The translations under genes were made by a program, and so were the position numbers. Positions 1,441-43,900 of a stretch of DNA of 64,000 nucleotides are shown piece by piece. Each line of letters opens with the position of its first letter. Position 1 is the stretch's first letter. Source of the DNA: an uncultured Desulfobacter sp. (GTDB taxonomy: Bacteria > Desulfobacterota > Desulfobacteria > Desulfobacterales > Desulfobacteraceae); assembly GCA_963665095.1 (NCBI GenBank), contig OY762069.1, positions 4,640,001 through 4,704,000 on the forward strand, written 5' to 3'. The notes under the pieces were generated by a model. It was not told the origin of the DNA and did not search any database. It saw nothing but the letters and a program-made list of their open reading frames with translations.

Positions 1441-2325
1441 ATGGATATCCGTACCCTGGAACTTTTCCGCCATCTCAGCAGAACCCTCCACTTCACCCGG
1501 ACCAGCAGGGAGTGCAACCTCTCGCCATCGGCGCTTACCCGGGCTGTACAGCGCCTGGAAACAGATGTGGGAAAACAGCTTTTCCTGCGCGGGAACCGGT
1601 CTGTGGAACTGACCTATGCCGGCCGTGCGTTTAAAACATACGCAGAGGACGTGCTGGACCGCTGGGATCGGTTGCAGGAGGAGTTGTCCCAGGAGGAGTT
1701 CCTCTCAGGCCAGCTCTCCCTGTACTGCTCTGTAACAGCGGCCTACTCCATTTTACCCGGTATCATTACCCGGTATCGGGCTGTGCATCCCGGAGTGCAG
1801 ATCCTTCTTGAAACCGGAGACCCGGCCGAGGCCCTGGACAGGCTGATGAACCTGGATGCCCATGCCGTGATCGCAGCCATGCCCGAAAAACCCGGTGCCC
1901 AGATCAGCTTTTTGAACATGGCCACAAGCCCGTTGGTGTTCATTGTGGCCCGCCCGTATACAGATATTGTGGTCCGGGACAGCACAGGACAACCTGACTG
2001 GGATAAAATTCCCATGATACTGGCAGACAAGGGACTAAGCCGGGAACGCATTGATCTCTGGTTTGAAGAAAACAATGTGGCACCACGTATCCACTCACGG
2101 GTCACGGGTCACGAAGCGATTATTGCGCTGGTGAATCTGGGGTTCGGCATGGGTCTTGTTCCCAGGCTGGTTTTGGAAAAAAGCCCCCTTTACCGAAATA
2201 TGGTGGTTCTTGACAACATGCCGGAACTACCTCCTTATGAAATTGCCCTTTGCACCCGGTGCAACAACCTGTCTAATCCCCGGGTCCGGGCCTTATGGGA
2301 CATCTCTGCCCAGCTTTGCCGGTGA
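1441..2325 (+). CDS. ilvY: LysR-family transcriptional activator IlvY
   Basis: MDIRTLELFRHLSRTLHFTRTSRECNLSPSALTRAVQRLE HTH, LSLYCSVTAAYS, divergent from ilvC; ATG 1441 preferred over the ORF-track start. Confidence 0.9.
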   Translation: MDIRTLELFRHLSRTLHFTRTSRECNLSPSALTRAVQRLETDVGKQLFLRGNRSVELTYAGRAFKTYAEDVLDRWDRLQEELSQEEFLSGQLSLYCSVTAAYSILPGIITRYRAVHPGVQILLETGDPAEALDRLMNLDAHAVIAAMPEKPGAQISFLNMATSPLVFIVARPYTDIVVRDSTGQPDWDKIPMILADKGLSRERIDLWFEENNVAPRIHSRVTGHEAIIALVNLGFGMGLVPRLVLEKSPLYRNMVVLDNMPELPPYEIALCTRCNNLSNPRVRALWDISAQLCR

Positions 2326-2536
2326 CTTAATTTTTTAAGGCGTTTCTGGGGGAGGGCAAAATAAGATTTCCTCTGTAATATGACACAGCTTTACGGCTTT
2401 TGCTGAACCAGACCTGTCTATATACCAACGTGATGCCGGGCGAAGCCGTAAATATTGACTTTGGCTTTAAATTCACCTAAAAATTGGCAGCGTGAAAATT
2501 GCTGTTTGCAGCATCCTTGAATAACAGGAAATAATA

Positions 2537-3955
2537 TTGGTTCATATAAAACATTATCCATCACAAACATATCCCGGCCGTAAATGGTTAAAGACCCTTT
2601 TTTCCATCGCGGTACTGTTTACGTTGCTGCAGCCAGGCACTATGGCCCGGGCGGAATCGCTTACCATTGCCTGCTATCAGGACTACCCGCCTTATTCCCA
2701 TGTGGGGGACAAGGGGGAGCCCCAGGGCCTGCTGGTGGATTTCTGGCAGCTCTGGGCAAAAAACAATCAGGTATCCGTAACCTTTGTACCCGGCCCTTTG
2801 AGCCAGTGCCTTGAGCAGGTGAAAAGCGGTAAAGCGGATTTTATGATCGGACTTTTTAAATCCGAAGACCGTGCGGCATTCCTGGATTTTTCCAAGCCCT
2901 TCATGACTGTCCACACCAATCTTTATGTTCAACAGGACATGGAAATTGATACCATTGAGCAGATGCCTGCCGACGTTGTGGTGGGTATGGTAAAAGAGGA
3001 CTTTTCCGTCTCCTTTTTTCATTCCCGGTACCCCAAAGTGAAAATAAAAGAGTTTTCCGGGGCCCAGGCTGTGCTTGAAAATGCCATGGCCGGAAAAATA
3101 AAGGCTTTTGCCCTTGATTTTCCCAATGCGGTGGTGCTCATGGCTGAACACAATTCCCTGGAAGAGTTCAAAAACCTGAAAACATTGTATACTGAACAAC
3201 TGCGGGCCGGGGTAGCCAAGGGCAATACGCGGCTTTTAGAAAAAATTGACAAAGGGCTTGCCATGGTGCCGGACAAAGAGATCAAGGCCCTTTACAGCAA
3301 ATGGGGGATTGCACCCAAACCGCTTCTTATTCAGTACCGGGGATGGGTAATCGCGCTTGTTGTACTTCTGCTTGCCGGATGTGTCGGCTTTGGTCTTTAT
3401 GTATTCCGGCTTAAAACCCGCATTCAAAACATGAAACAGGATGATGGATCCTCTGACGTAAATGCTTGGGAAAAAATTGTCTCTGGCGGTGAGAATGACG
3501 CGGTTGAATTCAAAACCTCCCTTCGCTGGAATGTCAAAGAGGAAAAAACAGATAAGCGCCTTGAAGCGGTGGTGGTTAAAACCCTGTCTGCATTCATGAA
3601 TGCCCGGGGCGGTTCACTGTTCATCGGTATTAATGACAATGGCGAACCAGTGGGCATCGAAGCTGACTACCGGACTTTTCAGAAAAAGCCTAACCAGGAC
3701 GGCTTTATGCTCAAACTCTCCGATCTGATTTCCAAAAACCTGGGCGCCCAGAGCCATAAATACATTGTTGCCGATATTCGGGTAATGGATGGTAAAGATG
3801 TGTGCCGGATTTCGGTCAAACCCTCTGACAAGCCTGTTTTCATCACCGATCAGGGTAAAGAGGCTTTTTATATCCGGGCAGGGGCCTCATCCATTCCCCT
3901 TGGTATGAGTCAGGCCCACGAATATATAACCTCCCACTGGCAACGGAGTGTTTGA
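2537..3955 (+). CDS. Signal peptide + family-3 solute-binding domain + TM helix + cytoplasmic Schlafen/AlbA_2 domain
   Basis: DYPPYS...GLLVDFW...GKAD...LDFSKPF binding-domain motifs; TM WVIALVVLLLAGCVGFGLYVF; GGENDAVEFKTSLRW and AFMNARGGSLFIGINDNG AlbA_2 motifs. Confidence 0.8.
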   Translation: MVHIKHYPSQTYPGRKWLKTLFSIAVLFTLLQPGTMARAESLTIACYQDYPPYSHVGDKGEPQGLLVDFWQLWAKNNQVSVTFVPGPLSQCLEQVKSGKADFMIGLFKSEDRAAFLDFSKPFMTVHTNLYVQQDMEIDTIEQMPADVVVGMVKEDFSVSFFHSRYPKVKIKEFSGAQAVLENAMAGKIKAFALDFPNAVVLMAEHNSLEEFKNLKTLYTEQLRAGVAKGNTRLLEKIDKGLAMVPDKEIKALYSKWGIAPKPLLIQYRGWVIALVVLLLAGCVGFGLYVFRLKTRIQNMKQDDGSSDVNAWEKIVSGGENDAVEFKTSLRWNVKEEKTDKRLEAVVVKTLSAFMNARGGSLFIGINDNGEPVGIEADYRTFQKKPNQDGFMLKLSDLISKNLGAQSHKYIVADIRVMDGKDVCRISVKPSDKPVFITDQGKEAFYIRAGASSIPLGMSQAHEYITSHWQRSV

Positions 3956-4029
3956 ACGGCTCGAAGAGGGGCATGCGCCCCTCTTCGAGCCGTTCAAACA
4001 CCAAACACGGGGTTTTCGTTCAGGCACTA
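3948..4029. repeat. Family A palindrome (perfect 25-bp stem, 4-nt loop) plus tail CAAACACGGGGTTTTCGTTCAGGCACTA
   Basis: GTGTTTGAACGGCTCGAAGAGGGGC-ATGC-GCCCCTCTTCGAGCCGTTCAAACAC at 3948-4001; related sequences at 36953, 48108 and 61115. Confidence 0.9.
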
Positions 4030-4067
4030 GAAGCCATCTCAAAATAAATATTTTGAGATGGCTTCTA
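4028..4067. repeat. Family B palindrome (19-bp arms)
   Basis: TAGAAGCCATCTCAAAATA-AA-TATTTTGAGATGGCTTCTA; second copy at 26687-26760. Confidence 0.85.
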
Positions 4068-4148
4068 ATTAATCCCGGTATCGGGGTCTCTCTTTAAAAT
4101 CCTTTTTTTGTTCTCCAGAACCTAACCATATAAAATTATCGTTCTTTA

Positions 4149-4172
4149 CGTTTTGCCAATATTGACATAGCG
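4149..4172. promoter_or_regulatory. ModE-like operator overlapping a TTGACA -35 upstream of FDH-1
   Basis: CGTTTTGCC-N6-GACATAGCG; near-identical site at 9684-9707; TTGACA at 4162-4167. Confidence 0.6.
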
Positions 4173-4239
4173 GATTGTGTATGGTACCCAGACCTAACTG
4201 AGTAGTTGCGGATAAATTTGAAACGACTGAGGAGAGTAC

Positions 4240-7017
4240 ATGCCAACCCTTCTGATCAACAATCAAAAAGTCGAGTTTCAGCCCAGGCAGACCATTTTAG
4301 ACCTGTGCAGTTCTCTATCAATTAATATTCCTACTCTTTGTTATCTCAAAGGAACTACCCCGGAAGGCGCCTGTGGTGTCTGCCTGGTAAAGGAAGCTGC
4401 CCGTGGCATGATACGGGCTTGCGATACTGAAGCTGCCCCGGGAATGGAGATACGCACTGACGGCCATGAAGTCCGGGCTGCCCGGAGGAAAGCCATTGCA
4501 AAGCTCGTCGCCGGGGGCAACCACAATTGCGGTGTGGCCGGGACCATGAAAGGCAGCTTTACCGATTTTCAGATGGATTCGGGCCAGGTGACCTCCGGTT
4601 TTGATCTGTGTCCGGCATGGGGAGACTGCCGGCTCCAGGATTTGGTTTATGAATATCAGGCCCATGCCGAAGCCTTCACAATGGAATGGAAAAACGAGGT
4701 GCCGGATGTGGCCAACCCCATGATTGTCAGGGATTACTCCAGGTGCATCGGCTGCGGCCGGTGCGTAAAAGCATGCAATGAGGTGCAGGCAAATATGGCT
4801 ATTAAAATGGATGATACAGGTAAACGGGATAAGGTGACCACCACCACGGGCTCAGACTCTTTGATGGATACCAGTTGCGTCTTCTGCGGAGAGTGTGTCC
4901 AGGCCTGTCCGGTGGGGGCTCTGGTTGAAAAAAAGGCTAAAGAAAACTGGCGGCCCTGGGATGTTGAAAAAATTCGAACGACCTGCCCCTATTGCGGTGT
5001 GGGCTGCCAGCAGCTTCTTCATGTCCAGGACGGAAAAATTGTCAAGGTAACCGGCGTGGAAGATGGTGCCCCCAACAAGGGTCGACTTTGTGTCAAAGGC
5101 CGGTTCGGGTATGACTTTATCTATTCGGATGAACGCATTAAAATGCCGGTGATCCGCCAGGAAAACGGAGAATTCAAGGAGGTCTCCTGGGATGAGGCCC
5201 TGGACTATACGGCGGACCGGCTGAAAGCCATTATCGCCGAATCCGGTCCCGATGCTGTGGCAGGCGTCTCCTGCGCCCGCTCAATCAACGAAGACTCCTA
5301 CCAGATGCAGAAACTTTTCAGGGCGGTGTTCAAGACAAACAACATCGACCATTGTGCCCGTACCTGACATGCGCCAACTGTCGCAGGTCTTGCGGCTTCA
5401 TTTGGTTCCGGCGCCATGACAAACTCCTTTGGGGAGTTTTCAAAAGCAAAAATGTTCTTCGTGATCGGGTCAAACATGACCGAGGCCCATCCAGTGGCTG
5501 CCACATTCTTGAAAAATGCAGTGCAGAACGGGGCCAAGCTCATTGTGGCGGATCCCAGGAAACACCGTCTGGCTGATTTTGCGGACATCCACCTGCCCTT
5601 GAAAGTGGGTTCGGATATCGCACTTCTCAACAGCCTGATGCATGTGCTGATCAAAGAAGATCTTTATGATAAAAACTTTGTAAACAACCATACAGAAGAT
5701 TTCGATAAGCTGAAAGCCACTGTGGACGCCTATCCGCCCGAGCGGGGGGAAGAGATTTCCGGAATTCCGGCCCATCAGATTGTTGAAACAGCAAGAATGC
5801 TGGCCTCTGTCAAGCCTTTGATGCTCTGTTATACCCTAGGCATCACCGAGCATACCTGCGGCCGTAACAATGTGGTCTCCACGGCCAATCTCCAGATGCT
5901 TTTAGGCAACCTTGGCGTGGAGTGCGGCGGCGTCAACCCCCTGCGTGGCCAGAACAATGTCCAGGGGGCATGCGACATGGGGGCACTGCCCAATGTCTAC
6001 CCCGGATACCAGGCTGTCACAGCGCCTGCGTCCAAAGAGAAGTTTGAAAAATTCTGGGGCGTGGAAGGGATGTCAGACAAACTCGGCCTGATGATCCCCC
6101 AGATGATGGACGGCCTGGTGGACAAAACAGTCCGGGCATTCTGGATATTTGGCGAGAACCTGGCCAATACCGAGCCGGACATCCGCAAGGTGGAACATGA
6201 ACTCGCCTCTGCGGAGTTCCTCATCTGTCAGGATATTTTCTTCAATGAGACCACGAAGTTTGCCGATGTGGTGTTCCCGGCCCAGGCCTGGAGTGAAAAT
6301 GACGGGACCTTTACCAATAGTGAACGAAGGGTCAACCGGGTCAGAGGCGTCAGCAAGGCGCCGGGTCAGGCCCAGCCCAACTGGTGGATCTTCCGTGAAA
6401 TCGCCAAACGGTTCGGCCAGGAGTGGGCATCCAACTCCGCACAGGAGATCTGGGATAATGAGTTGTCCGAACTGGGGCCTGCCTTTGGCGGCATAAAATA
6501 CCACCGCATTGAAAACGACGGACTCCAGTGGCCCTGCCCCACCCTTGAACATCCGGGTACGGGGTTTCTGCACAATCAGGGGGCGTTCACCCGTGGCAAG
6601 GGCGCGTTCCTGCCGGTGGAATGGACACCACCTGCCGAAGTACCGGACAAGGAGTATCCCTTTGTCTTAAGTACAGGCAGACGGCTGTATCATTACCATA
6701 CCAGGACCCAGACCGGGCGCTGCGCCGGACTCAATGATCTTTTGGGTGAGGAAACAGCCGATATTTCACTGAAAGAGGCCCAGCGCCTGGGTATTGAGCA
6801 TGGAGAGTACATCCATGTCAGTTCCCGGCGCGGGCAGGTCAGAGTCAGAGCCAATGTCACCGAAGAGATGCCGGACGGCATGGTGTGGATGGCTTTCCAC
6901 TTCAGGGAGGGCAATGCCAACTGGCTGGCCAATCCGGCCTTTGACCCCATCACCCTTACGGCTGAGTACAAGGCCTGTGCGGTTAACATTGCAAAAATAG
7001 AAAAACAGAAGGCGTAA
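4240..7017 (+). CDS. fdhF: Selenocysteine-containing Mo/W-bisPGD formate dehydrogenase alpha subunit (cytoplasmic, N-terminal 2Fe-2S/4Fe-4S domains); TGA 5365-5367 read as Sec
   Basis: ORFs 4240-5367 and 5416-7017 are in one frame joined by [42 protein letters not shown] and PLRGQNNVQGACDMG motifs; no Tat signal. Confidence 0.93.
5365..5400 (+). promoter_or_regulatory. Bacterial SECIS element of FDH-1
   Basis: TGA followed 12 nt later by stem GTCGCA/TGCGGC around loop GGTCT, like the fdhF SECIS. Confidence 0.8.
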
Positions 7018-9855: not shown

Positions 9856-12618
9856 ATGGAGAAGAACATTTTAACGCTTAATGAAAACCGATTGGAATTC
9901 ATTCCGGGCGAAACCATTCTGGATGTTGCCAATAGGAATAAAATAGATATTCCCACCCTGTGCCATCTTGCAAACACCACACCCACCAAAACCTGCGGTA
10001 TCTGTGTGGTTGAAATAGAAGGCCAGAAGGATCTGGTCGAGTCCTGCGCCACCCAGGCCCGGGACGGTATGGTCATTTTTTCAGAATCCTTAAAGGTTGT
10101 GGCCAGAAGAAAACAGATACTTTCAGACATGCTCGCAAAGGGCAATCACAACTGTGCCATCCGTGTCATGGAAGCGGATGAATGGACCGATTTCCAGATG
10201 GATGTCCATGCGGACGAGGGCAAGCAGGCCCTTTGCCCGGTATGGGGGGATTGTGAACTCCAGAATCTGGCCTACCGGTATCAGGTCCGGGTCAGCCATA
10301 TGCCCCAGCAGGCCTGTGTTCATGAGACAGAACGGGTCAATCCCTTTATTATCAGGGATTTTTCAAGATGTATCCTGTGCGGCCGGTGTGTCAAAGCCTG
10401 CCGGGAAATTCAGGTTAACAACGCCATCGAATTTGGCGGTCAAGGAGATGAAATGAAAGTCGTTGCCGGAAATGATGCGCATTTAAAAGACTCAGACTGC
10501 GTCTTTTGCGGAGAATGCATCCAGGCCTGCCCGGTTGGGGCGCTGGTTCCGGAACGTGAGTTCCGTGACGACCGGTTCAAACCCACCAACGTTACCCGCA
10601 CCACCTGCGCGTTCTGCGGGGTGGGCTGCCAGATGGATGTCTATACCCAGGACAATAAAATCGTTAAGATTGACGGTGCAGACCCGGATTTGGCGCCCAA
10701 CAACGCCCGTCTCTGCGTCAAGGGCCGTTTCGGATATGAATTTGTCGGTGCCCCGGATCGTTTAACCACACCGTTGATCAAGAAAAACGGCAAACAGGTC
10801 AAGGCGTCATGGGACGAAGCCCTGGACCTTGTGGCCTCAAAGTTTGCCGAAATCCGTGACAAGAGCGGATCAGACACCATGGGGGTCCTCACCTCAGCCC
10901 GTATGACCAACGAGGACAACTATGCGGCCATGAAATTCACCCGGGCCGTGTTAAAAACAAACAATATAGATCATTGTGCCCGACTGTGACATAGCTCCAC
11001 CGTAGCCGGTCTGGCTGCAGCATTTGGAAGCGGCGCAATGACAAACACCATCGCCGATATTGAAGAAGCAGACGTGATCCTGGTCACAGGATCCAATACA
11101 ACTGAAAACCATCCGGTCCTGTCCACCTTTATTAAACGGGCCGTACTCAAAGGCAAAAAGCTTTATGTGATTGACCCCCGTCGGGTCCGGCTTTCCGACC
11201 ACGCTGAAAAGTGGCTGCGCCCCAATCCGGGTACAGACATTGCCTGGATCAACGGCATGATGAACGTCATCCTGTCTGAAAACCTTCAGGCTCAGTCCTA
11301 TATCGACCAGCGGTGTGAAAACTTTGACGAGCTGAAAGCCATTGTTGAAAAATACACGCCTGAATATGTGGAAGGCTTGACCGGAATTGCCGCAGAAGAC
11401 CTGAAAACTGTAGCAAGAGATTTTGCCAAAGCCGGTGCCGCCTCCATCTGCTACTGTATGGGCATCACCCAGCACACCTGCGGTACGGACAACGTCAAGA
11501 GCCTGGCCAACCTCTCCATGCTCTGCGGTCATTTAGGCAAACCCGGCGGCGGTGTGAATCCGTTGCGCGGACAGAACAACGTCCAGGGCGCCTGTGACAT
11601 GGGGGGGCTTCCCAATGTCTTCACCGCCTATCAGCCTGTGGCCAATGAACAGGCCCGGGCGATCTATGAAGAGGCATGGAATGTCACCGGTCTTTCAGGC
11701 ACCGTAGGGTTTACAGCCACGGAGATGTTCAACAAAGCCCACGACGGCGAGCTGAAATCCCTGTTCATCATCGGGGAAAATCCCATGGTGTCGGACCCGG
11801 ATCTCAACCATGCCCAGAAAGCACTGGAACACCTTGAGTTTTTGGTGGTTCAGGATATTTTTGAGACTGAAACATCCGCTCTGGCCGATGTGGTATTGCC
11901 TGCCTTCTGTTTTGCAGAAAAGGATGGCACCTTTACCAACACAGAAAGACGTGTTCAGCGGGTCAGAAAAGCGGTAGATGCACCTGACGGCGCAAAACAG
12001 GACTGGGAGATCATCTGTGAGATCGCCACCCGCATGGGATACCCCATGTCCTGGGAGAACAGCGAAGCGGTCTTTACAGAGATTACGGCTTTGACGCCGT
12101 CCTACCGGGGCATTACCTGGGACCGCATTGATAAGGTTGGGCTTTTCTGGCCCTGCCCGGATGCCGAACATCCTGGCACCCCAATTCTGCACACCAAGGT
12201 GTTCACCAGGGGCAAAGGCATGTTCCACGCCATTGACCACAGGCCGCCTGCAGAAGAGCCGGATGAAAAGTATCCCTTTATCCTCACCACCGGCCGGGTG
12301 CTTTATCACTACCACACAGGTACCATGACCATGCGCACCGCAGGTCTGAACACCCTGTCTCCGGAGTGCTTTGTGGAGATTTCCGGAAGCGATGCCAAAA
12401 AGATCGGCGTGGAAAATGGAAAGATGGTCAATGTCTTCTCCCGCAGGGGTAAAATCAAAGCCCGGCTCCAGGTATCGGAAAAAGCTGTGGACGGCACCAT
12501 TTTCATCCCGTTCCACTTTGCCGGCGCCGCTGCCAACAGGCTGACCAATGCAGAACTTGATCCCACAGCCAAAATCCCGGAATTTAAGGTCTGTGCCATC
12601 AACATAGAAGCAGCATAA
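9856..12618 (+). CDS. fdhF: Second selenocysteine-containing formate dehydrogenase alpha subunit; TGA 10987-10989 read as Sec
   Basis: ORFs 9856-10989 and 11038-12618 in frame via [31 protein letters not shown]; same domain layout as FDH-1. Confidence 0.93.
10987..11022 (+). promoter_or_regulatory. Bacterial SECIS element of FDH-2
   Basis: Stem GTAGCC/GGCTGC around loop GGTCT, 12 nt after the TGA; stem covaries with the FDH-1 SECIS. Confidence 0.8.
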
Positions 12619-39840: not shown

Positions 39841-40995
39841 ATGAGTTTATCACAGAAGCCTGAAACCTCATTTTTCAGGCGCGGGCTGACATTTACTCTA
39901 AAAAAACTGCCTTTTGCGGTTTTCATTTTACTTATTGCAGTGATTCTTTCCTTTATGATGGAAAAAATATCCCTTCATAAGGCTGAATTAAAAAAAGCTC
40001 AGGCAGAACAGATCAAAGAACCACCGGCCCTTGCCAATGTTATTACCATGGCAGTTTTTCCCGGACGGGTGGCTGAAGAGATAAGTCTGCCGGGTGTGGC
40101 AAAACCATGGATTTCGCTGACGGTTTCTGCAGAAGTCGGGGGCAAGGTGGTAAAAAAACTTGTGAGTGAAGGCCAGTACGTCAATAAAGGAGATGTGATT
40201 GCATTTATTGACAGCCGGGATTACGAATACAATTATTCGTCTGCACTTGCCTCCTATGAAACCGCAAAAACAGATGCAGACAGGTTTAAGGCGCTGTCAA
40301 AAAAACAATTCATCACCCAGGCCCAGCTTGATGATGCCCAGACCCGGGTTAAAACGACCCTTTCCGCCATGGAACAGGCTAAACTGAACTTGGAGCGCTG
40401 TACCATCCGGTGTCCCATGAAAGGAATTGCTGACCGGGTACATATAGAGGTAGGCAACTTTCTGGGCAAAGGCGATCCCGTGGCTGATATTCTGGAACTG
40501 GACCGGTTGAAAATTGAGGTGGGCATCCCTGAATCAGATGTATCTGCCGTGCGAAAGCTGAAAACCTTTGATTTAAGTTTTGATGCCCTGAACGGGAAAA
40601 CCGTCACAGGCACCTACCACTATCTATATAAAACAACATCTTCCATGGCGCGATTATACAATCTTGAAATCGCAGTGGATAATCCGGGTCTCCAGATTCT
40701 TCCGGATATGTTTGCCCGCGTGTCCATTATAAAAAATCAGACGGATAACGGCCTGGCCGTTCCTATCTATTCCCTTATTACCAAAAATAAAAAAACAGGA
40801 ATTTATATTGAAAACAACGGCCAGGTGTCATTCAGGTATGTGACAACGGGATTTCAGGATGGATGGAGTATCCTGGTTACCCAGGGGCTTGAACCCAGAG
40901 AAAACGTGGTGGTGGTCGGTCACCGGATGGTGGAGGATAAGGATAAGGTTAATGTGATTCGGACCGTAAAAACCATAGAGGAACTGTCCAGATGA
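39841..40995 (+). CDS. RND efflux periplasmic adaptor (membrane fusion protein)
   Basis: N-terminal TM, VSAEVGGKV...VSEGQYVNKGD, TIRCPMKG, ILPDMFARV. Confidence 0.88.
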   Translation: MSLSQKPETSFFRRGLTFTLKKLPFAVFILLIAVILSFMMEKISLHKAELKKAQAEQIKEPPALANVITMAVFPGRVAEEISLPGVAKPWISLTVSAEVGGKVVKKLVSEGQYVNKGDVIAFIDSRDYEYNYSSALASYETAKTDADRFKALSKKQFITQAQLDDAQTRVKTTLSAMEQAKLNLERCTIRCPMKGIADRVHIEVGNFLGKGDPVADILELDRLKIEVGIPESDVSAVRKLKTFDLSFDALNGKTVTGTYHYLYKTTSSMARLYNLEIAVDNPGLQILPDMFARVSIIKNQTDNGLAVPIYSLITKNKKTGIYIENNGQVSFRYVTTGFQDGWSILVTQGLEPRENVVVVGHRMVEDKDKVNVIRTVKTIEELSR

Positions 40996-43900
40996 TCGTC
41001 TCTGATACTGCTGTCAAAAACAGAATCTCTGTGATGGTTCTGATCCTTATTATCATTGTTACAGGGCTTTACACCTATATATCCCTGCCCAGGGAAAGCT
41101 CTCCGGATATCACCATCCCCTATGTGTTTGTTCAGACCAATTACAGAGGTGTGTCTGCCGCTGATATTGAAACCGCTATTACCATAAAAATAGAAAAAAA
41201 ACTCAAAGGCCTTGATAAGGTAAAAAATATATCTTCCGTCTCGTCCCAGGGCTTATCCCAGATCAATATTGAATTTCTGCCCGGTACAGATATTGATGAG
41301 GTATTAACCAGGGTTAAAGACAAGGTGGATGAAGCTAAAAATGATCTGCCCACAGACCTTGAAAACGATCCGTCTGTATTTGAGGTGAACTTTTCAGATA
41401 TGCCCATTGTGGTCTATTCCCTGGCGGGTGAGGCAGGTCCCAGACTGCTGAAAAAAATAGCTGATGACCTTAAGGATGACATTGAGGCAATTCCCGGGGT
41501 TCTTGAGGTGGATGTCACTGGTGGCCAGGAGCGTGAAATCCGTATAGAAGTGGATACGGATAAACTGGCGTATTACAGGATACCCATTACCAGTCTTCAA
41601 AGTGCGGTGGTTACGGAAAATCAGAATACATCCGGGGGCGCTATCACGCTTGGAGACGGCAGATACCAGCTTAAAGTGCCTGGTGAGTTTGATACCCCGG
41701 AGGAAATTCTTTCCCTGGTGGTGGCCACACACAACGGCCGACCCATTTATCTCAAAGATGTGGCAAAAGTGCTGGACGGGGTTAAGGATGAGATATCAAA
41801 ATCCCGTCTGGACGGGATAAACGCCATCAATCTTTCAGTGAAAAAACGGGCGGGTGAGAATGTTATTAAAATATCAGACAGAATAGATGATGTTGTCAGC
41901 AAAGCCAGTGCCACCTTTCCCAAAGGCACCACCATCACCAAGCTCATGAACAATTCAAAGGAGATCCGGGCCATGGTGGCGGACCTGGAAAACAATATCA
42001 TCTCTGGACTGATCCTTGTTGTTGTTGTGCTGTTTGCCGCCCTGGGAATCAGAAATGCATTTCTTGTGGGCCTTGCCATCCCATTTTCCATGTTTCTCTC
42101 ATTCACTGTGCTTTATGCCCTGGATATCACCTTGAATATGGTGGTGCTTTTTTCCCTGACTCTGGCCCTTGGCATGCTGGTGGACAACGCCATTGTCATC
42201 ATTGAAAATGTTTACAGATTCATGCAGCAGGGGATGCCAAGAATTGATGCGGCCATGAAAGCAACATCGGAAGTGGCATGGCCCGTGATCGGGTCAACTC
42301 TGACCACCCTTGCCGCCTTTTTCCCCATGATTTTCTGGCCCGGTATCATGGGTGAATTCATGAGTTTTCTGCCCATCACCCTGATCGTGACCTTAAGTTC
42401 CTCTCTGTTTGTGGCTCTGGTGATTAATCCTGCCATGTGCGCCTTTTTCATGCGGGTCAAAGCAGACAACAAAATTACGGCGTCAGGTCAGGGCCAGGAT
42501 ATTGAATCATCATGTGAAAAGCCCATAGAGATTAAAGGCATAATACTTAAAACCTATGAAAAAATTTTAACCGGTTCACTGAACCATAAGGTCTTTGTAC
42601 TTATTACCTCCTTTGGACTACTTATATTCCTGTGGCAGATCTGGATGCTGCGCATCGGCATAGAAAAGCCGTTGGAATTTTTCCCGGCCATTGACCCAAG
42701 ATCTGCCTATGTAAATATTGATACGCCAGAAGGAGCTGATCTGGATTATATCGACCATGTTGTCATGGAGGTGGAAAAAGCTGTTGCAGGGCGATCTGAT
42801 GCCCCTTACCAAAAGGCATTAGCCCTGCAGGATCATGAACGTGCCGACGGAACAAAATTTTTAGCACCTTCTGATATCAATAACATTGAACACATCTATA
42901 CCCGGGCGGTTCAAAACGCAGGAGCATCCATTTTTGATTCCAACCTGCCCAATCACATCGGGATTCAGTTTATTGATTTTGAAGACAGGAAAAGTACGGT
43001 TAAGGCGGATCTGGAAAAAATCCGGCAGCGGGTGGCACATATCCCGGGCGTTAAAATAACTGTGGATGAATTAAAAGAAGGTCCACCCACAGGACCGCCC
43101 ATTAATATTGAAATTTCAGGCGACAGTTTTTCCGTATTAAGCCGGATTTCAGAACAGATTAAAAAAATTGTGGAACAGGTGCCCCATGTCAAGGATATCC
43201 GGGATAATTACCAGGGAGGTCTTCCCAGTATTCAGGTGATCATAGACCGGCAGCGGGCAGCGCTTTTCGGGCTGACCACCTCCGCAATCGGAACAGCCCT
43301 TAAAATCGCTTATAACGGCCTGGATGTCTCCACCTATTATGAGGGAGATGAAGATTATGATATCACAGTGACCCTGGCAGAATCTGACCGCAGGGTCACA
43401 GATATTCTGCATAAGCTGATGATTCCGTCTCCCATGGGACAGATGGTGCCTTTAACCACCCTTGCACGAATCGAATATAAAGGGACCCTCGGGGATATTG
43501 TCCGAAAAAACCACGAGCGGGTGGTAACGGTACAGGCCAATGTGGATGAAACCAGAATAACCGGCAGTGTGGCCCGGATGCAGGTCATGGAGCTGATGAA
43601 AAACATGAACCTTCCGGCAGGGTACAGTTATAAGTTCACCGGGGAAGATGAAGAACAGCAGCAGGCCCAGCAATTTTTATCCAAAGCCTTTATAATTGCC
43701 CTGTTTTTGATTTTCTTAATTCTTGTCACCATGTTTAATTCCGTAATTCAGCCGGTAATTATTCTGACATCCGTAATATTATCTCTTGGCGGTGCCTTCT
43801 GGGGACTTTTTGTAATCAAGTCTCCTTTTGGTGTGATTATGACAGGGGTAGGCATTATTTCCCTGGCCGGGGTGGTGGTCAACAATGCCATTGTACTGAT

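Follow-up and report, generated by a model that had tools for sequence, protein, structure and literature searches.

A recent survey of prokaryotic Schlafen (pSlfn) proteins catalogued 5,930 members in 55 domain compositions, all of which carry an E-x4-(E/D)-x-K motif (Perez Taboada et al., Nat Microbiol 2026; PMC13056530). Two of these proteins, RorSlfn5, with an Ig-like sensor, and EcoSlfn7, a DUF262 fusion, are reported there to protect against phages via tRNA cleavage. In another described system, CbCash joins one Schlafen domain to Csx15, relies on E17, D22, and K24 together with Mg, and cuts the T-loops of tRNA, with cleavage following the formation of filaments driven by cyclic tetra-adenylate (cA4) (Weickert et al., PMC13462974). 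Finally, the Schlafen domain of RzAgo, which belongs to the SLFN-prokaryotic Argonaute (pAgo) group, is reported to cut tRNA with the same motif and a SAFAN "Schlafen box," and dimerization of this single-lobe bacterial domain is described as rebuilding the two-lobed mammalian arrangement (bioRxiv 10.64898/2026.05.29.728809). Here, we describe a gene of an uncultured Desulfobacter sp. whose product is predicted to hold such a domain behind the membrane, under a solute-binding domain. The gene occupies positions 2537..3955 of the + strand in a window of 64,000 nucleotides (the whole stretch of DNA that was analyzed; contig OY762069.1, positions 4,640,001 to 4,704,000).

The product resembles RorSlfn5 (Slfn + Ig-like), EcoSlfn7 (DUF262 + Slfn), CbCash (Slfn + Csx15), and RzAgo (Slfn + GHKL + pAgo) in that a single-lobe Schlafen domain with E-x4-(E/D)-x-K is fused to a sensor, and also in that the nuclease part is highly conserved while the sensor part is variable. 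Yet, the sensors of those four systems are cytoplasmic and read phage proteins, cA4, or guide-target duplexes, whereas here a periplasmic solute-binding protein (SBP) domain is predicted behind a transmembrane (TM) helix. Furthermore, their genes lie mostly in defense islands, while the gene described here lies outside any that we found, and the Schlafen domain is C-terminal here but N-terminal in Cash, RzAgo, and most members of pSlfn1/2/5. Our interpretation, to which we give about an even chance, is that the protein is a ligand-gated single-pass membrane RNase that would cut RNA, most probably tRNA. The features on which this interpretation draws are as follows.

2526..2529, + strand: AGGA, a Shine-Dalgarno-like element 7 nt 5' of the TTG start, as read from the sequence.
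2537..3955, + strand: SBP_bac_3 - TM - Schlafen/AlbA_2 receptor gene, 472 amino acids (aa); an open reading frame (ORF) with about 40 full-length homologue clusters that have both Pfam domains.
2537..2653, + strand: N-terminal signal peptide or signal anchor, residues 1-39, with an h-region at 22-32 and A-R-A at 37-39.
2660..3307, + strand: predicted periplasmic Venus-flytrap domain, SBP_bac_3, residues 42-257 (Pfam, E 6.7e-26).
2861..2872, + strand: S109-E-D-R112, falling on a T/S-x-x-R segment in HMMER alignments to AncCDT-1 and AncQR.
3116..3118, + strand: D194, falling on the conserved Asp of amino-acid-binding proteins in the alignment with amino-acid binders.
3344..3406, + strand: predicted transmembrane helix, approximately W270-F290 (Kyte-Doolittle peak; helix in the AlphaFold2 [AF2] model).
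3407..3490, + strand: juxtamembrane linker of 28 residues, 291-318, with invariant W311 and G318 (alignment A1, 25 sequences).
3491..3952, + strand: predicted cytoplasmic Schlafen/AlbA_2 nuclease-type domain, residues 319-472 (Pfam; model fold).
3491..3514, + strand: E319-NDAV-E324-F-K326, the E-x4-(E/D)-x-K nuclease motif, aligned with E-x4-E-F-K of SLFN11 and SLFN14 (HMMER).
3587..3637, + strand: Schlafen box S351-A-F-M-N355 followed by G358-G-S-L-F-I-G-I-N-D367, in which D367 is the third acidic residue.

The original prediction, made by a model from the DNA sequence alone, had called the product of this ORF a "one-component receptor," a loose wording for what is better termed a transmembrane sensor-effector fusion. 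The ORF itself, 472 aa plus a stop codon with TTG at 2537 as the start codon, was confirmed by the ORF list and its translation. In Pfam, residues 42-257 matched SBP_bac_3 and residues 319-454 matched SLFN_AlbA_2, both above the curated cut-offs, which bears out the family-3 binding domain and the AlbA_2 domain that had been proposed. The match to SLFN_AlbA_2 (PF04326) reached 69.0 bits against a cut-off of 25.3 (E 6.6e-19) and covered profile positions 1-116 of 118. A structural model of residues 301-472, built with a 70-sequence alignment, had a predicted local distance difference test score (pLDDT) of 95.1 and a predicted template-modeling score (pTM) of 0.90. When this model was compared with the PDB using Foldseek, there were 34 matches with E <= 1e-3, and those listed were all SLFN5/11/12/13/14, SAMD9, or bacterial AlbA_2 domains (DIP2311, 3lmm; the RecG-related 2kyy). 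The C-terminal domain is thus predicted by modeling to take the Schlafen C-lobe/AlbA_2 fold, the lack of which had been named in advance as grounds for abandoning the idea.

The residues associated with catalysis point in the same direction. The ENDAVEFK motif noted earlier at 3491-3514 corresponds to residues 319-326, and the AFMN-x-x-GG-x-LFIG-x-x-D segment reads AFMN-AR-GG-S-LFIG-IN-D at residues 352-367. In HMMER alignments, the E-x4-E-x-K motif and the downstream Asp fell on the catalytic residues of SLFN11/12/13/14, as anticipated, and SAFMN-x-x-GG-S-LFIG-IN-D367 aligned with SAFAN-x-x-GG-x-LFIG-VDD of the same four proteins; the box differs from SAFAN by one substitution, A to M, and D367 is aligned with the D-D of SLFN11/13/14. 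Across 70 diverse relatives, identity was complete (70/70) at E319, E324, K326, N355, G358, G359, G364, D367, G373, D377, P433, and R447. Likewise, E319, E324, K326, N355, G358, G359, D367, D377, and R447 were identical in 33/33 SBP-type or related proteins. Judged by these alignments, every known catalytic Schlafen residue is retained in the domain, which is the most conserved part of the protein. The profile built from it also reaches CbCash (9ylu, E 0.002). As in mammalian SLFN11/12/13/14 and SAMD9, we find the catalytic C-lobe fold, E-x4-E-x-K, a SAFxN box, and a GG-x-LFIG-x-D-D segment, but mammalian Schlafens have two lobes per chain together with a linker and helicase domains, whereas the protein described here has one lobe. 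When PADLOC was run on the protein itself, it gave a weak pAgo match only (E 0.0025), which reflects the Schlafen domain of some pAgos, and a pAgo system was set aside.

A Schlafen fold could also serve to hold nucleic acid rather than cut it. In that case, we would be dealing with a regulator tethered to the membrane, comparable to ToxR or CadC in its logic, that binds DNA or RNA and holds or releases this target when a ligand binds. Relatives appear in public records as "RNA-binding domain-containing protein" and "AlbA family DNA-binding domain-containing protein," SLFN5 entries are titled as DNA/RNA-binding, and the domain is basic, with an isoelectric point (pI) of 8.66 and about 10 conserved Lys/Arg in A1. 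The database names are automatic labels, however, and an invariant set of acidic and lysine catalytic residues along with the Schlafen box would be hard to explain for a mere binder. In addition, the same SAMD9 domain that was solved with DNA has been deposited as a tRNase (9o0d), and Pfam detected no helix-turn-helix or other DNA-reading domain in the gene product. We therefore regard a noncatalytic binder as decidedly unlikely.

The N-terminal half of the protein has the features of a small-molecule receptor. SBP_bac_3 (PF00497) scored 91.1 bits against a cut-off of 26.4, and the top Foldseek matches of the sensor were the periplasmic-binding-protein (PBP) domain of RmcA (7ejg, 2e-16), AncCDT-1, AncQR, HisJ/LAO, and a histidine-kinase sensor (3h7m). 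TM-scores (target) of 0.77-0.84 to amino-acid-binding proteins and sensor PBP domains indicate a two-lobe PBP type II fold; no Cache family was detected in the sensor by Pfam. A phmmer search of the sensor against the PDB returned AncCDT-1 (1.8e-13) and BvgS (2.8e-13), along with RmcA and EvgS, the last of which was also matched in an NCBIfam scan. The closest structures thus include BvgS, EvgS, RmcA, and a histidine-kinase sensor, in keeping with the expectation that sensors of this type normally feed kinases or cyclases. As in BvgS/EvgS, RmcA, and the GSU histidine-kinase sensor 3h7m, a periplasmic family-3 domain would precede a membrane helix, with the effector in the cytoplasm, a topology that is predicted here. 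Unlike in BvgS/EvgS/RmcA, the output is a Schlafen nuclease-type domain and not a kinase, cyclase, or phosphodiesterase, and the 28-residue linker stands in place of a HAMP, PAS, or DHp relay. Among described Schlafens, the nearest counterpart is Cache.pSlfn (pSlfn12), an unstudied class of 25 members in which an extracytoplasmic small-molecule sensor is likewise followed by a C-terminal Schlafen domain (PMC13056530 Supplementary Table 2). The sensor described here is SBP_bac_3, of the periplasmic-binding-protein fold, and not Cache.

The pocket suggests what kind of ligand may be read. S109 and R112 fall on the T/S-x-x-R segment of LAO/HisJ-type proteins, which we take to be the holder of the alpha-carboxylate, and the Asp equivalent to D194 presumably holds the alpha-amino group. 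Each of S109, R112, and D194 is at least 90% conserved in A1, that is, in the Desulfobacteraceae family. Because the S-x-x-R and Asp positions of amino-acid binders are retained, we infer an amino-acid-like solute as the probable ligand. NCBIfam models of Lys/Arg/Orn, cystine, and glutamine binding proteins matched weakly and far under their cut-offs (best 64 vs 256 bits), and for this reason we name no ligand.

Those weak matches bear on a different explanation, according to which the protein is a membrane-anchored substrate-binding protein of an amino-acid ABC transporter and its C-terminal domain is incidental. This is how source databases name it and its relatives ("ABC-type amino acid transport substrate-binding protein," "transporter substrate-binding domain-containing protein"). 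But the best score falls far below what such an assignment calls for, no ABC permease or ATPase gene is adjacent in the window or in eight related loci, and it is the supposedly incidental domain that is most strongly conserved. A transporter subunit is very improbable.

Elsewhere in the genome, which is a single contig of 6.9 Mb with one copy of the gene and four other AlbA_2 genes, many tandem SBP_bac_3 domains occur in open frames of 1200-1800 aa (for example, genome G000, C1:686463-689417, 40200-41573, 2858179-2860467, and 2972413-2974560). These are presumably BvgS/EvgS-like multi-flytrap sensor kinases, and the organism relies heavily on the SBP_bac_3 fold for sensing. One SBP_bac_3-like stretch (G000:C1:2979036-2980451) is broken by TGA and TAA stops, perhaps because it is a pseudogene or because a binding-protein gene is frameshifted there.

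A sensor outside and a nuclease inside is the topology that we infer, because a signal-type N-terminus, a single helix, and basic residues after that helix occur together. At the N-terminus, a basic n-region (R15, K16, K19) precedes an h-region, LFSIAVLFTLL, and A-R-A at 37-39. The position of the h-region is kept across A1, an N-terminal hydrophobic segment was found in 33/40 family members by a Kyte-Doolittle scan, and residues 14-30 form a helix in the AF2 model. As for the signal peptide of the original prediction, the AxA site is not kept in all homologues, so an uncleaved signal anchor is as possible as a cleaved peptide. The public gene call of an identical protein (P0002, 437 aa) begins at M36 and so omits this segment, but the longer start of the 472-aa form is supported by homologues of 455-488 aa. 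Between the two domains, there is a single strong hydrophobic segment at residues 271-289 (Kyte-Doolittle 2.68), lying within a continuous helix at 268-302 in the AF2 model, in agreement with the one TM helix that had been proposed. Directly after it come R291-x-K293-x-R295, basic residues consistent with the cytoplasmic side of the membrane. A promoter and terminator scan of 2250-4300 was uninformative, with 4 sites of each kind vs 2.8 expected by chance. Sequencing data sets listed as containing this stretch were six of DNA type, from three studies, and none of RNA.

If the protein is a ligand-gated RNase, it might work as follows. An amino-acid-like solute would bind the outer domain and close the flytrap, and closure would be relayed inward via the lone membrane helix and its 28-residue linker. 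Adjacent protomers would then pack their single-lobe Schlafen domains differently, so that an RNA-binding cleft is completed in the manner of RzAgo or Cash, and a Mg-dependent cut in the loops of tRNA (or another structured RNA) would slow translation. Because the protein has one lobe, a complete cleft would need a second protomer, by analogy with RzAgo. For Cash, SLFN-pAgo, and RorSlfn5, function or purification as oligomers has been reported (PMC13462974; bioRxiv 10.64898/2026.05.29.728809; PMC13056530).

The fusion is not confined to one genome. A word-indexed search returned 50 proteins, 40 of which had both Pfam domains at 49-100% identity; these were 437-488 aa long, plus one 303-aa piece. 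Named members among those 40 came from metagenome-assembled genomes (MAGs) of Desulfobacter, Desulfobacteraceae, or Desulfobacterales, and genome contigs add Desulfospira. The closest relatives without an SBP include DUF262-fused domains with 36-44% identity to the C-terminal domain. A second, larger SBP-TM-Schlafen group emerged with P0066 as the query (456 clusters at E <= 1e-20), and both domains were present in all of the best 120 of these 456 clusters. Its named members, Draconibacterium, Labilibacter marinus, L. sediminis, and a Marinilabiliaceae isolate, are all Bacteroidota.

In a FastTree phylogeny of the Schlafen domain alone (163 rows), 29 SBP-fused rows and five short or undetected-sensor rows formed one group with support of 94. 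The same 34-row group was recovered with IQ-TREE from 82 selected rows, namely those 34 and 48 of the 129 others, with Cache-fused sequences left out and hence not placed relative to it. Support was 99.5 by the SH-like approximate likelihood ratio test (SH-aLRT) in a quick run; in a careful run, it was 99 by ultrafast bootstrap (UFBoot) and 97.6 by SH-aLRT, with the bootstrap not fully settled. Since the SBP-fused Schlafen domains fall in a single tree group, the SBP-Schlafen fusion looks like one family across two phyla of sediment anaerobes. Within it, the pocket triad S/T109-R112-D194 was kept in 8/9 clade-A sequences, 7/20 clade-B sequences, and 0/4 forms with an unannotated sensor. A fixed nuclease paired with a variable pocket is what would be expected of receptors that share an output and read different ligands.

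Some relatives may have lost the sensor. On a Desulfobacteraceae MAG contig, an orthologue in an ilvC-LysR context (L018:7001-7635) is seemingly without a solute-binding domain; only query residues 37-65 and 267-468 match, within 635 nt. The sensor may have been deleted naturally, or the form may be an artifact of assembly; P0040 (303 aa), P0052, P0057, and P0086 could likewise be short forms of this sort or fragments.

The wider family shows how varied the partners of this domain can be. An exhaustive HMMER search of 1.84 billion representatives with the C-terminal domain only gave 6,558 representative clusters, 186 of them at E <= 1e-30, and among the matches the Schlafen domain was nearly always at the extreme C-terminus. 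E-x4-[ED]-x-K was matched in all of the best 150 of the 6,558, and it marked the start of the domain wherever it was compared with Pfam coordinates. SBP_bac_3 was present in 21 of the best 150 (Pfam). Defense-type partners among these 150 were the BrxL Lon protease, GmrSD_N/DUF262, AbiTii, nSTAND, TIR, and DUF4420, together with SNF2 and UvrD helicases and a type IV secretion system (T4SS) coupling protein. Signaling-type partners were a receiver domain, ACT, prephenate dehydratase, NUDIX, and bPH_2; other members had 60-170 residues without a Pfam match. In a crude scan, about 33/129 of the non-SBP matches had one or two hydrophobic helices ahead of the Schlafen domain, which argues that membrane tethering of this domain is common.

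Several of these fusions are worth recording in their own right. The receiver-domain fusions (P0110, P0132, P0163) correspond to CheY.pSlfn (pSlfn18), a class with 14 members in PMC13056530 Supplementary Table 2, and in a receiver-Schlafen protein, an RNase would serve as the output of a response regulator. ACT is fused in P0123, prephenate dehydratase in P0094 and P0176, and bPH_2 in P0125, P0129, P0152, P0158, and P0199, several of which have two TM helices. P0056 (2337 aa) contains 19 tandem partial AlbA_2 matches to profile positions 1-68 and 18 copies of E-x4-[ED]-x-K about 90 residues apart, that is, a repeat array of the Schlafen N-terminal half.

Alternatively, the protein may be an anti-phage sensor-effector that acts by abortive infection, like other prokaryotic Schlafens. 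The molecular mechanism would be the same as in our preferred reading; only the trigger and the purpose would differ, with a phage-derived or envelope-damage cue in the periplasm leading to tRNA destruction that stops phage production. All of the bacterial Schlafens tested in the published reports defend against phages (RorSlfn5 and EcoSlfn7, PMC13056530; Cash, PMC13462974; RzAgo, bioRxiv 10.64898/2026.05.29.728809), and 69.6% of catalogued pSlfn genes are stated to lie at most 10 kb from a defense gene (PMC13056530). The subfamily of the domain fused to BrxL, GmrSD_N/DUF262, AbiTii, nSTAND, TIR, and DUF4420 also fits this explanation, as does a variable sensor on a fixed nuclease, a pattern read as phage coevolution or an arms race by the authors of PMC13056530. 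Furthermore, the gene is patchy. Using a criterion of at least 59% identity over the C-terminal domain in a frame of about 470-530 aa, we found an orthologue in 19/151 genomes of its family and 10/25 genomes of its genus; several complete genomes among those searched yielded none.

The surroundings of the gene speak against a role in defense. No defense family was found by PADLOC among 11 window neighbors, which gave one weak FAD-motif match only, nor, judging by Pfam names, in six upstream ORFs, six downstream ORFs, or the 24 neighbors of eight related loci. Within roughly 12 kb in both directions we found no defense gene, with Pfam names rather than PADLOC used to judge the 12 kb upstream as well as the related loci, and the gene falls outside a defense island as defined by a distance of 10 kb. 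An ilvC-LysR pair lies upstream in 4/10 related loci (two of the 10 being too short to tell), with identities across the four loci of 67-69% for LysR and approximately 90% for IlvC, which points to vertical descent in a housekeeping region. In addition, the sensor is a flytrap of the ordinary small-molecule kind, nearly all clade-A sequences retain its amino-acid backbone triad, and the analogous Cache.pSlfn class has a low defense score (0.36 vs approximately 0.7 for the main classes; PMC13056530 Supplementary Table 2). An anti-phage function is, in our view, unlikely. Given the housekeeping neighborhood and the periplasm-facing sensor, control of translation or growth arrest on an external chemical cue is favored over classical intracellular phage sensing.

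An argument can still be made against this account from several directions. All of the bacterial Schlafens characterized in PMC13056530 and PMC13462974 are anti-phage effectors, so a nonimmune role is an extrapolation. A patchy distribution suits an accessory or defense gene as well as an optional sensor, and the nearest outgroup in the FastTree phylogeny is fused to the defense-type partners BrxL and DUF4420, with support of only 84. Some eukaryotic relatives with the same fold bind nucleic acid, with the RNase role unproven (SLFN5; the SAMD9 domain solved with DNA). The assignment of an amino-acid-type pocket concerns three aligned positions only, the position equivalent to D11 is occupied by Tyr, and flytraps of the BvgS type, which have similar features, answer to other molecules. 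Finally, the full-length AF2 model (pLDDT 75, pTM 0.43) is too uncertain to inform interdomain geometry. Whatever probability is not taken up by the explanations considered here we leave for something unforeseen.

The neighboring genes themselves are housekeeping genes that differ from locus to locus (Pfam names), and no constant partner gene was found across the eight related loci. Upstream ORFs encode MobB, a TPR protein, an HrpB helicase, a CitMHS transporter, an IF-2B-family protein, and a hybrid kinase, followed by ilvC and the divergent LysR. In the window, this pair spans positions 1-2325, with ilvC on the - strand running off the window start and the LysR-family regulator at 1354/1441..2325 (+). 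A functional partnership with the receptor gene was considered and rejected; we read it instead as an ilvC-ilvY-like pair kept by descent. Downstream are two selenocysteine formate dehydrogenase genes, a PF0610-like protein, a DAO oxidoreductase, DUF1007, a pyridoxal phosphate (PLP) enzyme, and a PAS-GGDEF protein. The two formate-dehydrogenase-type molybdopterin oxidoreductase genes, at 4240-7017 and 9856-12618 (+), are paralogous, and an in-frame TGA divides each of them into two ORFs. With TGA 5365-5367 taken as selenocysteine, the first gives ..IDHCARTUHAPTVAGL.., and the second has the same Pfam split (2Fe-2S, 4Fe-4S, Molybdop_Fe4S4 / Molybdopterin, Molydop_binding), as judged by Pfam only. 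Neighbors in the related loci include a methyltransferase, phospholipase A1, a CitMHS transporter, FapA-like proteins, NUDIX, glutaminase, EamA, an outer membrane protein (OMP), a PLP decarboxylase, an M20 peptidase, a META-domain protein, and a Na/H antiporter.

The combination of SBP, TM helix, and Schlafen domain appears to be a sizeable receptor architecture that was previously unlisted, in a class whose nuclease activity in bacteria was established only in 2026. We rate it as unlisted because it is absent from the table of 55 architectures, from the Cash supplements, and from a full-text literature search. Specifically, the terms sbp, pbp, periplasmic, and solute do not occur in PMC13056530 Supplementary Table 2, no SBP/PBP term occurs in the PMC13462974 supplementary files examined, and the full-text search found no paper joining Schlafen/AlbA_2 with a solute-binding domain. 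A literature search judged by title or abstract found no paper on bacterial Cache or transmembrane Schlafen receptors. The main text of the SLFN-pAgo preprint contains none of SBP, solute-binding, transmembrane, or periplasmic, and its supplements may list further architectures. Public annotation describes the protein as an amino-acid transporter subunit or an RNA-binding protein, and neither label conveys its architecture.

Bacterial Schlafens have just been established as phage-triggered tRNases with cytoplasmic sensors, and here a seemingly intact nuclease would sit behind the membrane under a small-molecule domain. It is possible, if doubtful, that the hundreds of relatives from Desulfobacteraceae of sediments and Bacteroidota of the sea act as "receptor RNases," transmembrane receptors whose Schlafen tRNase is gated directly by a small molecule outside the cell, with a nonimmune function of tuning translation or dormancy on amino-acid-like cues. 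If so, chemical signals would be converted directly into RNA cleavage without a second messenger or kinase, and the family would offer a tractable system for studying how a single-lobe Schlafen is switched, with a small molecule as the ligand instead of a phage protein. More generally, a domain now seen, in bacteria and humans alike, as an effector of immunity may have a nonimmune role, and RNA cleavage would take its place as a primary output of transmembrane signaling beside phosphorylation, cyclic nucleotides, and DNA binding.

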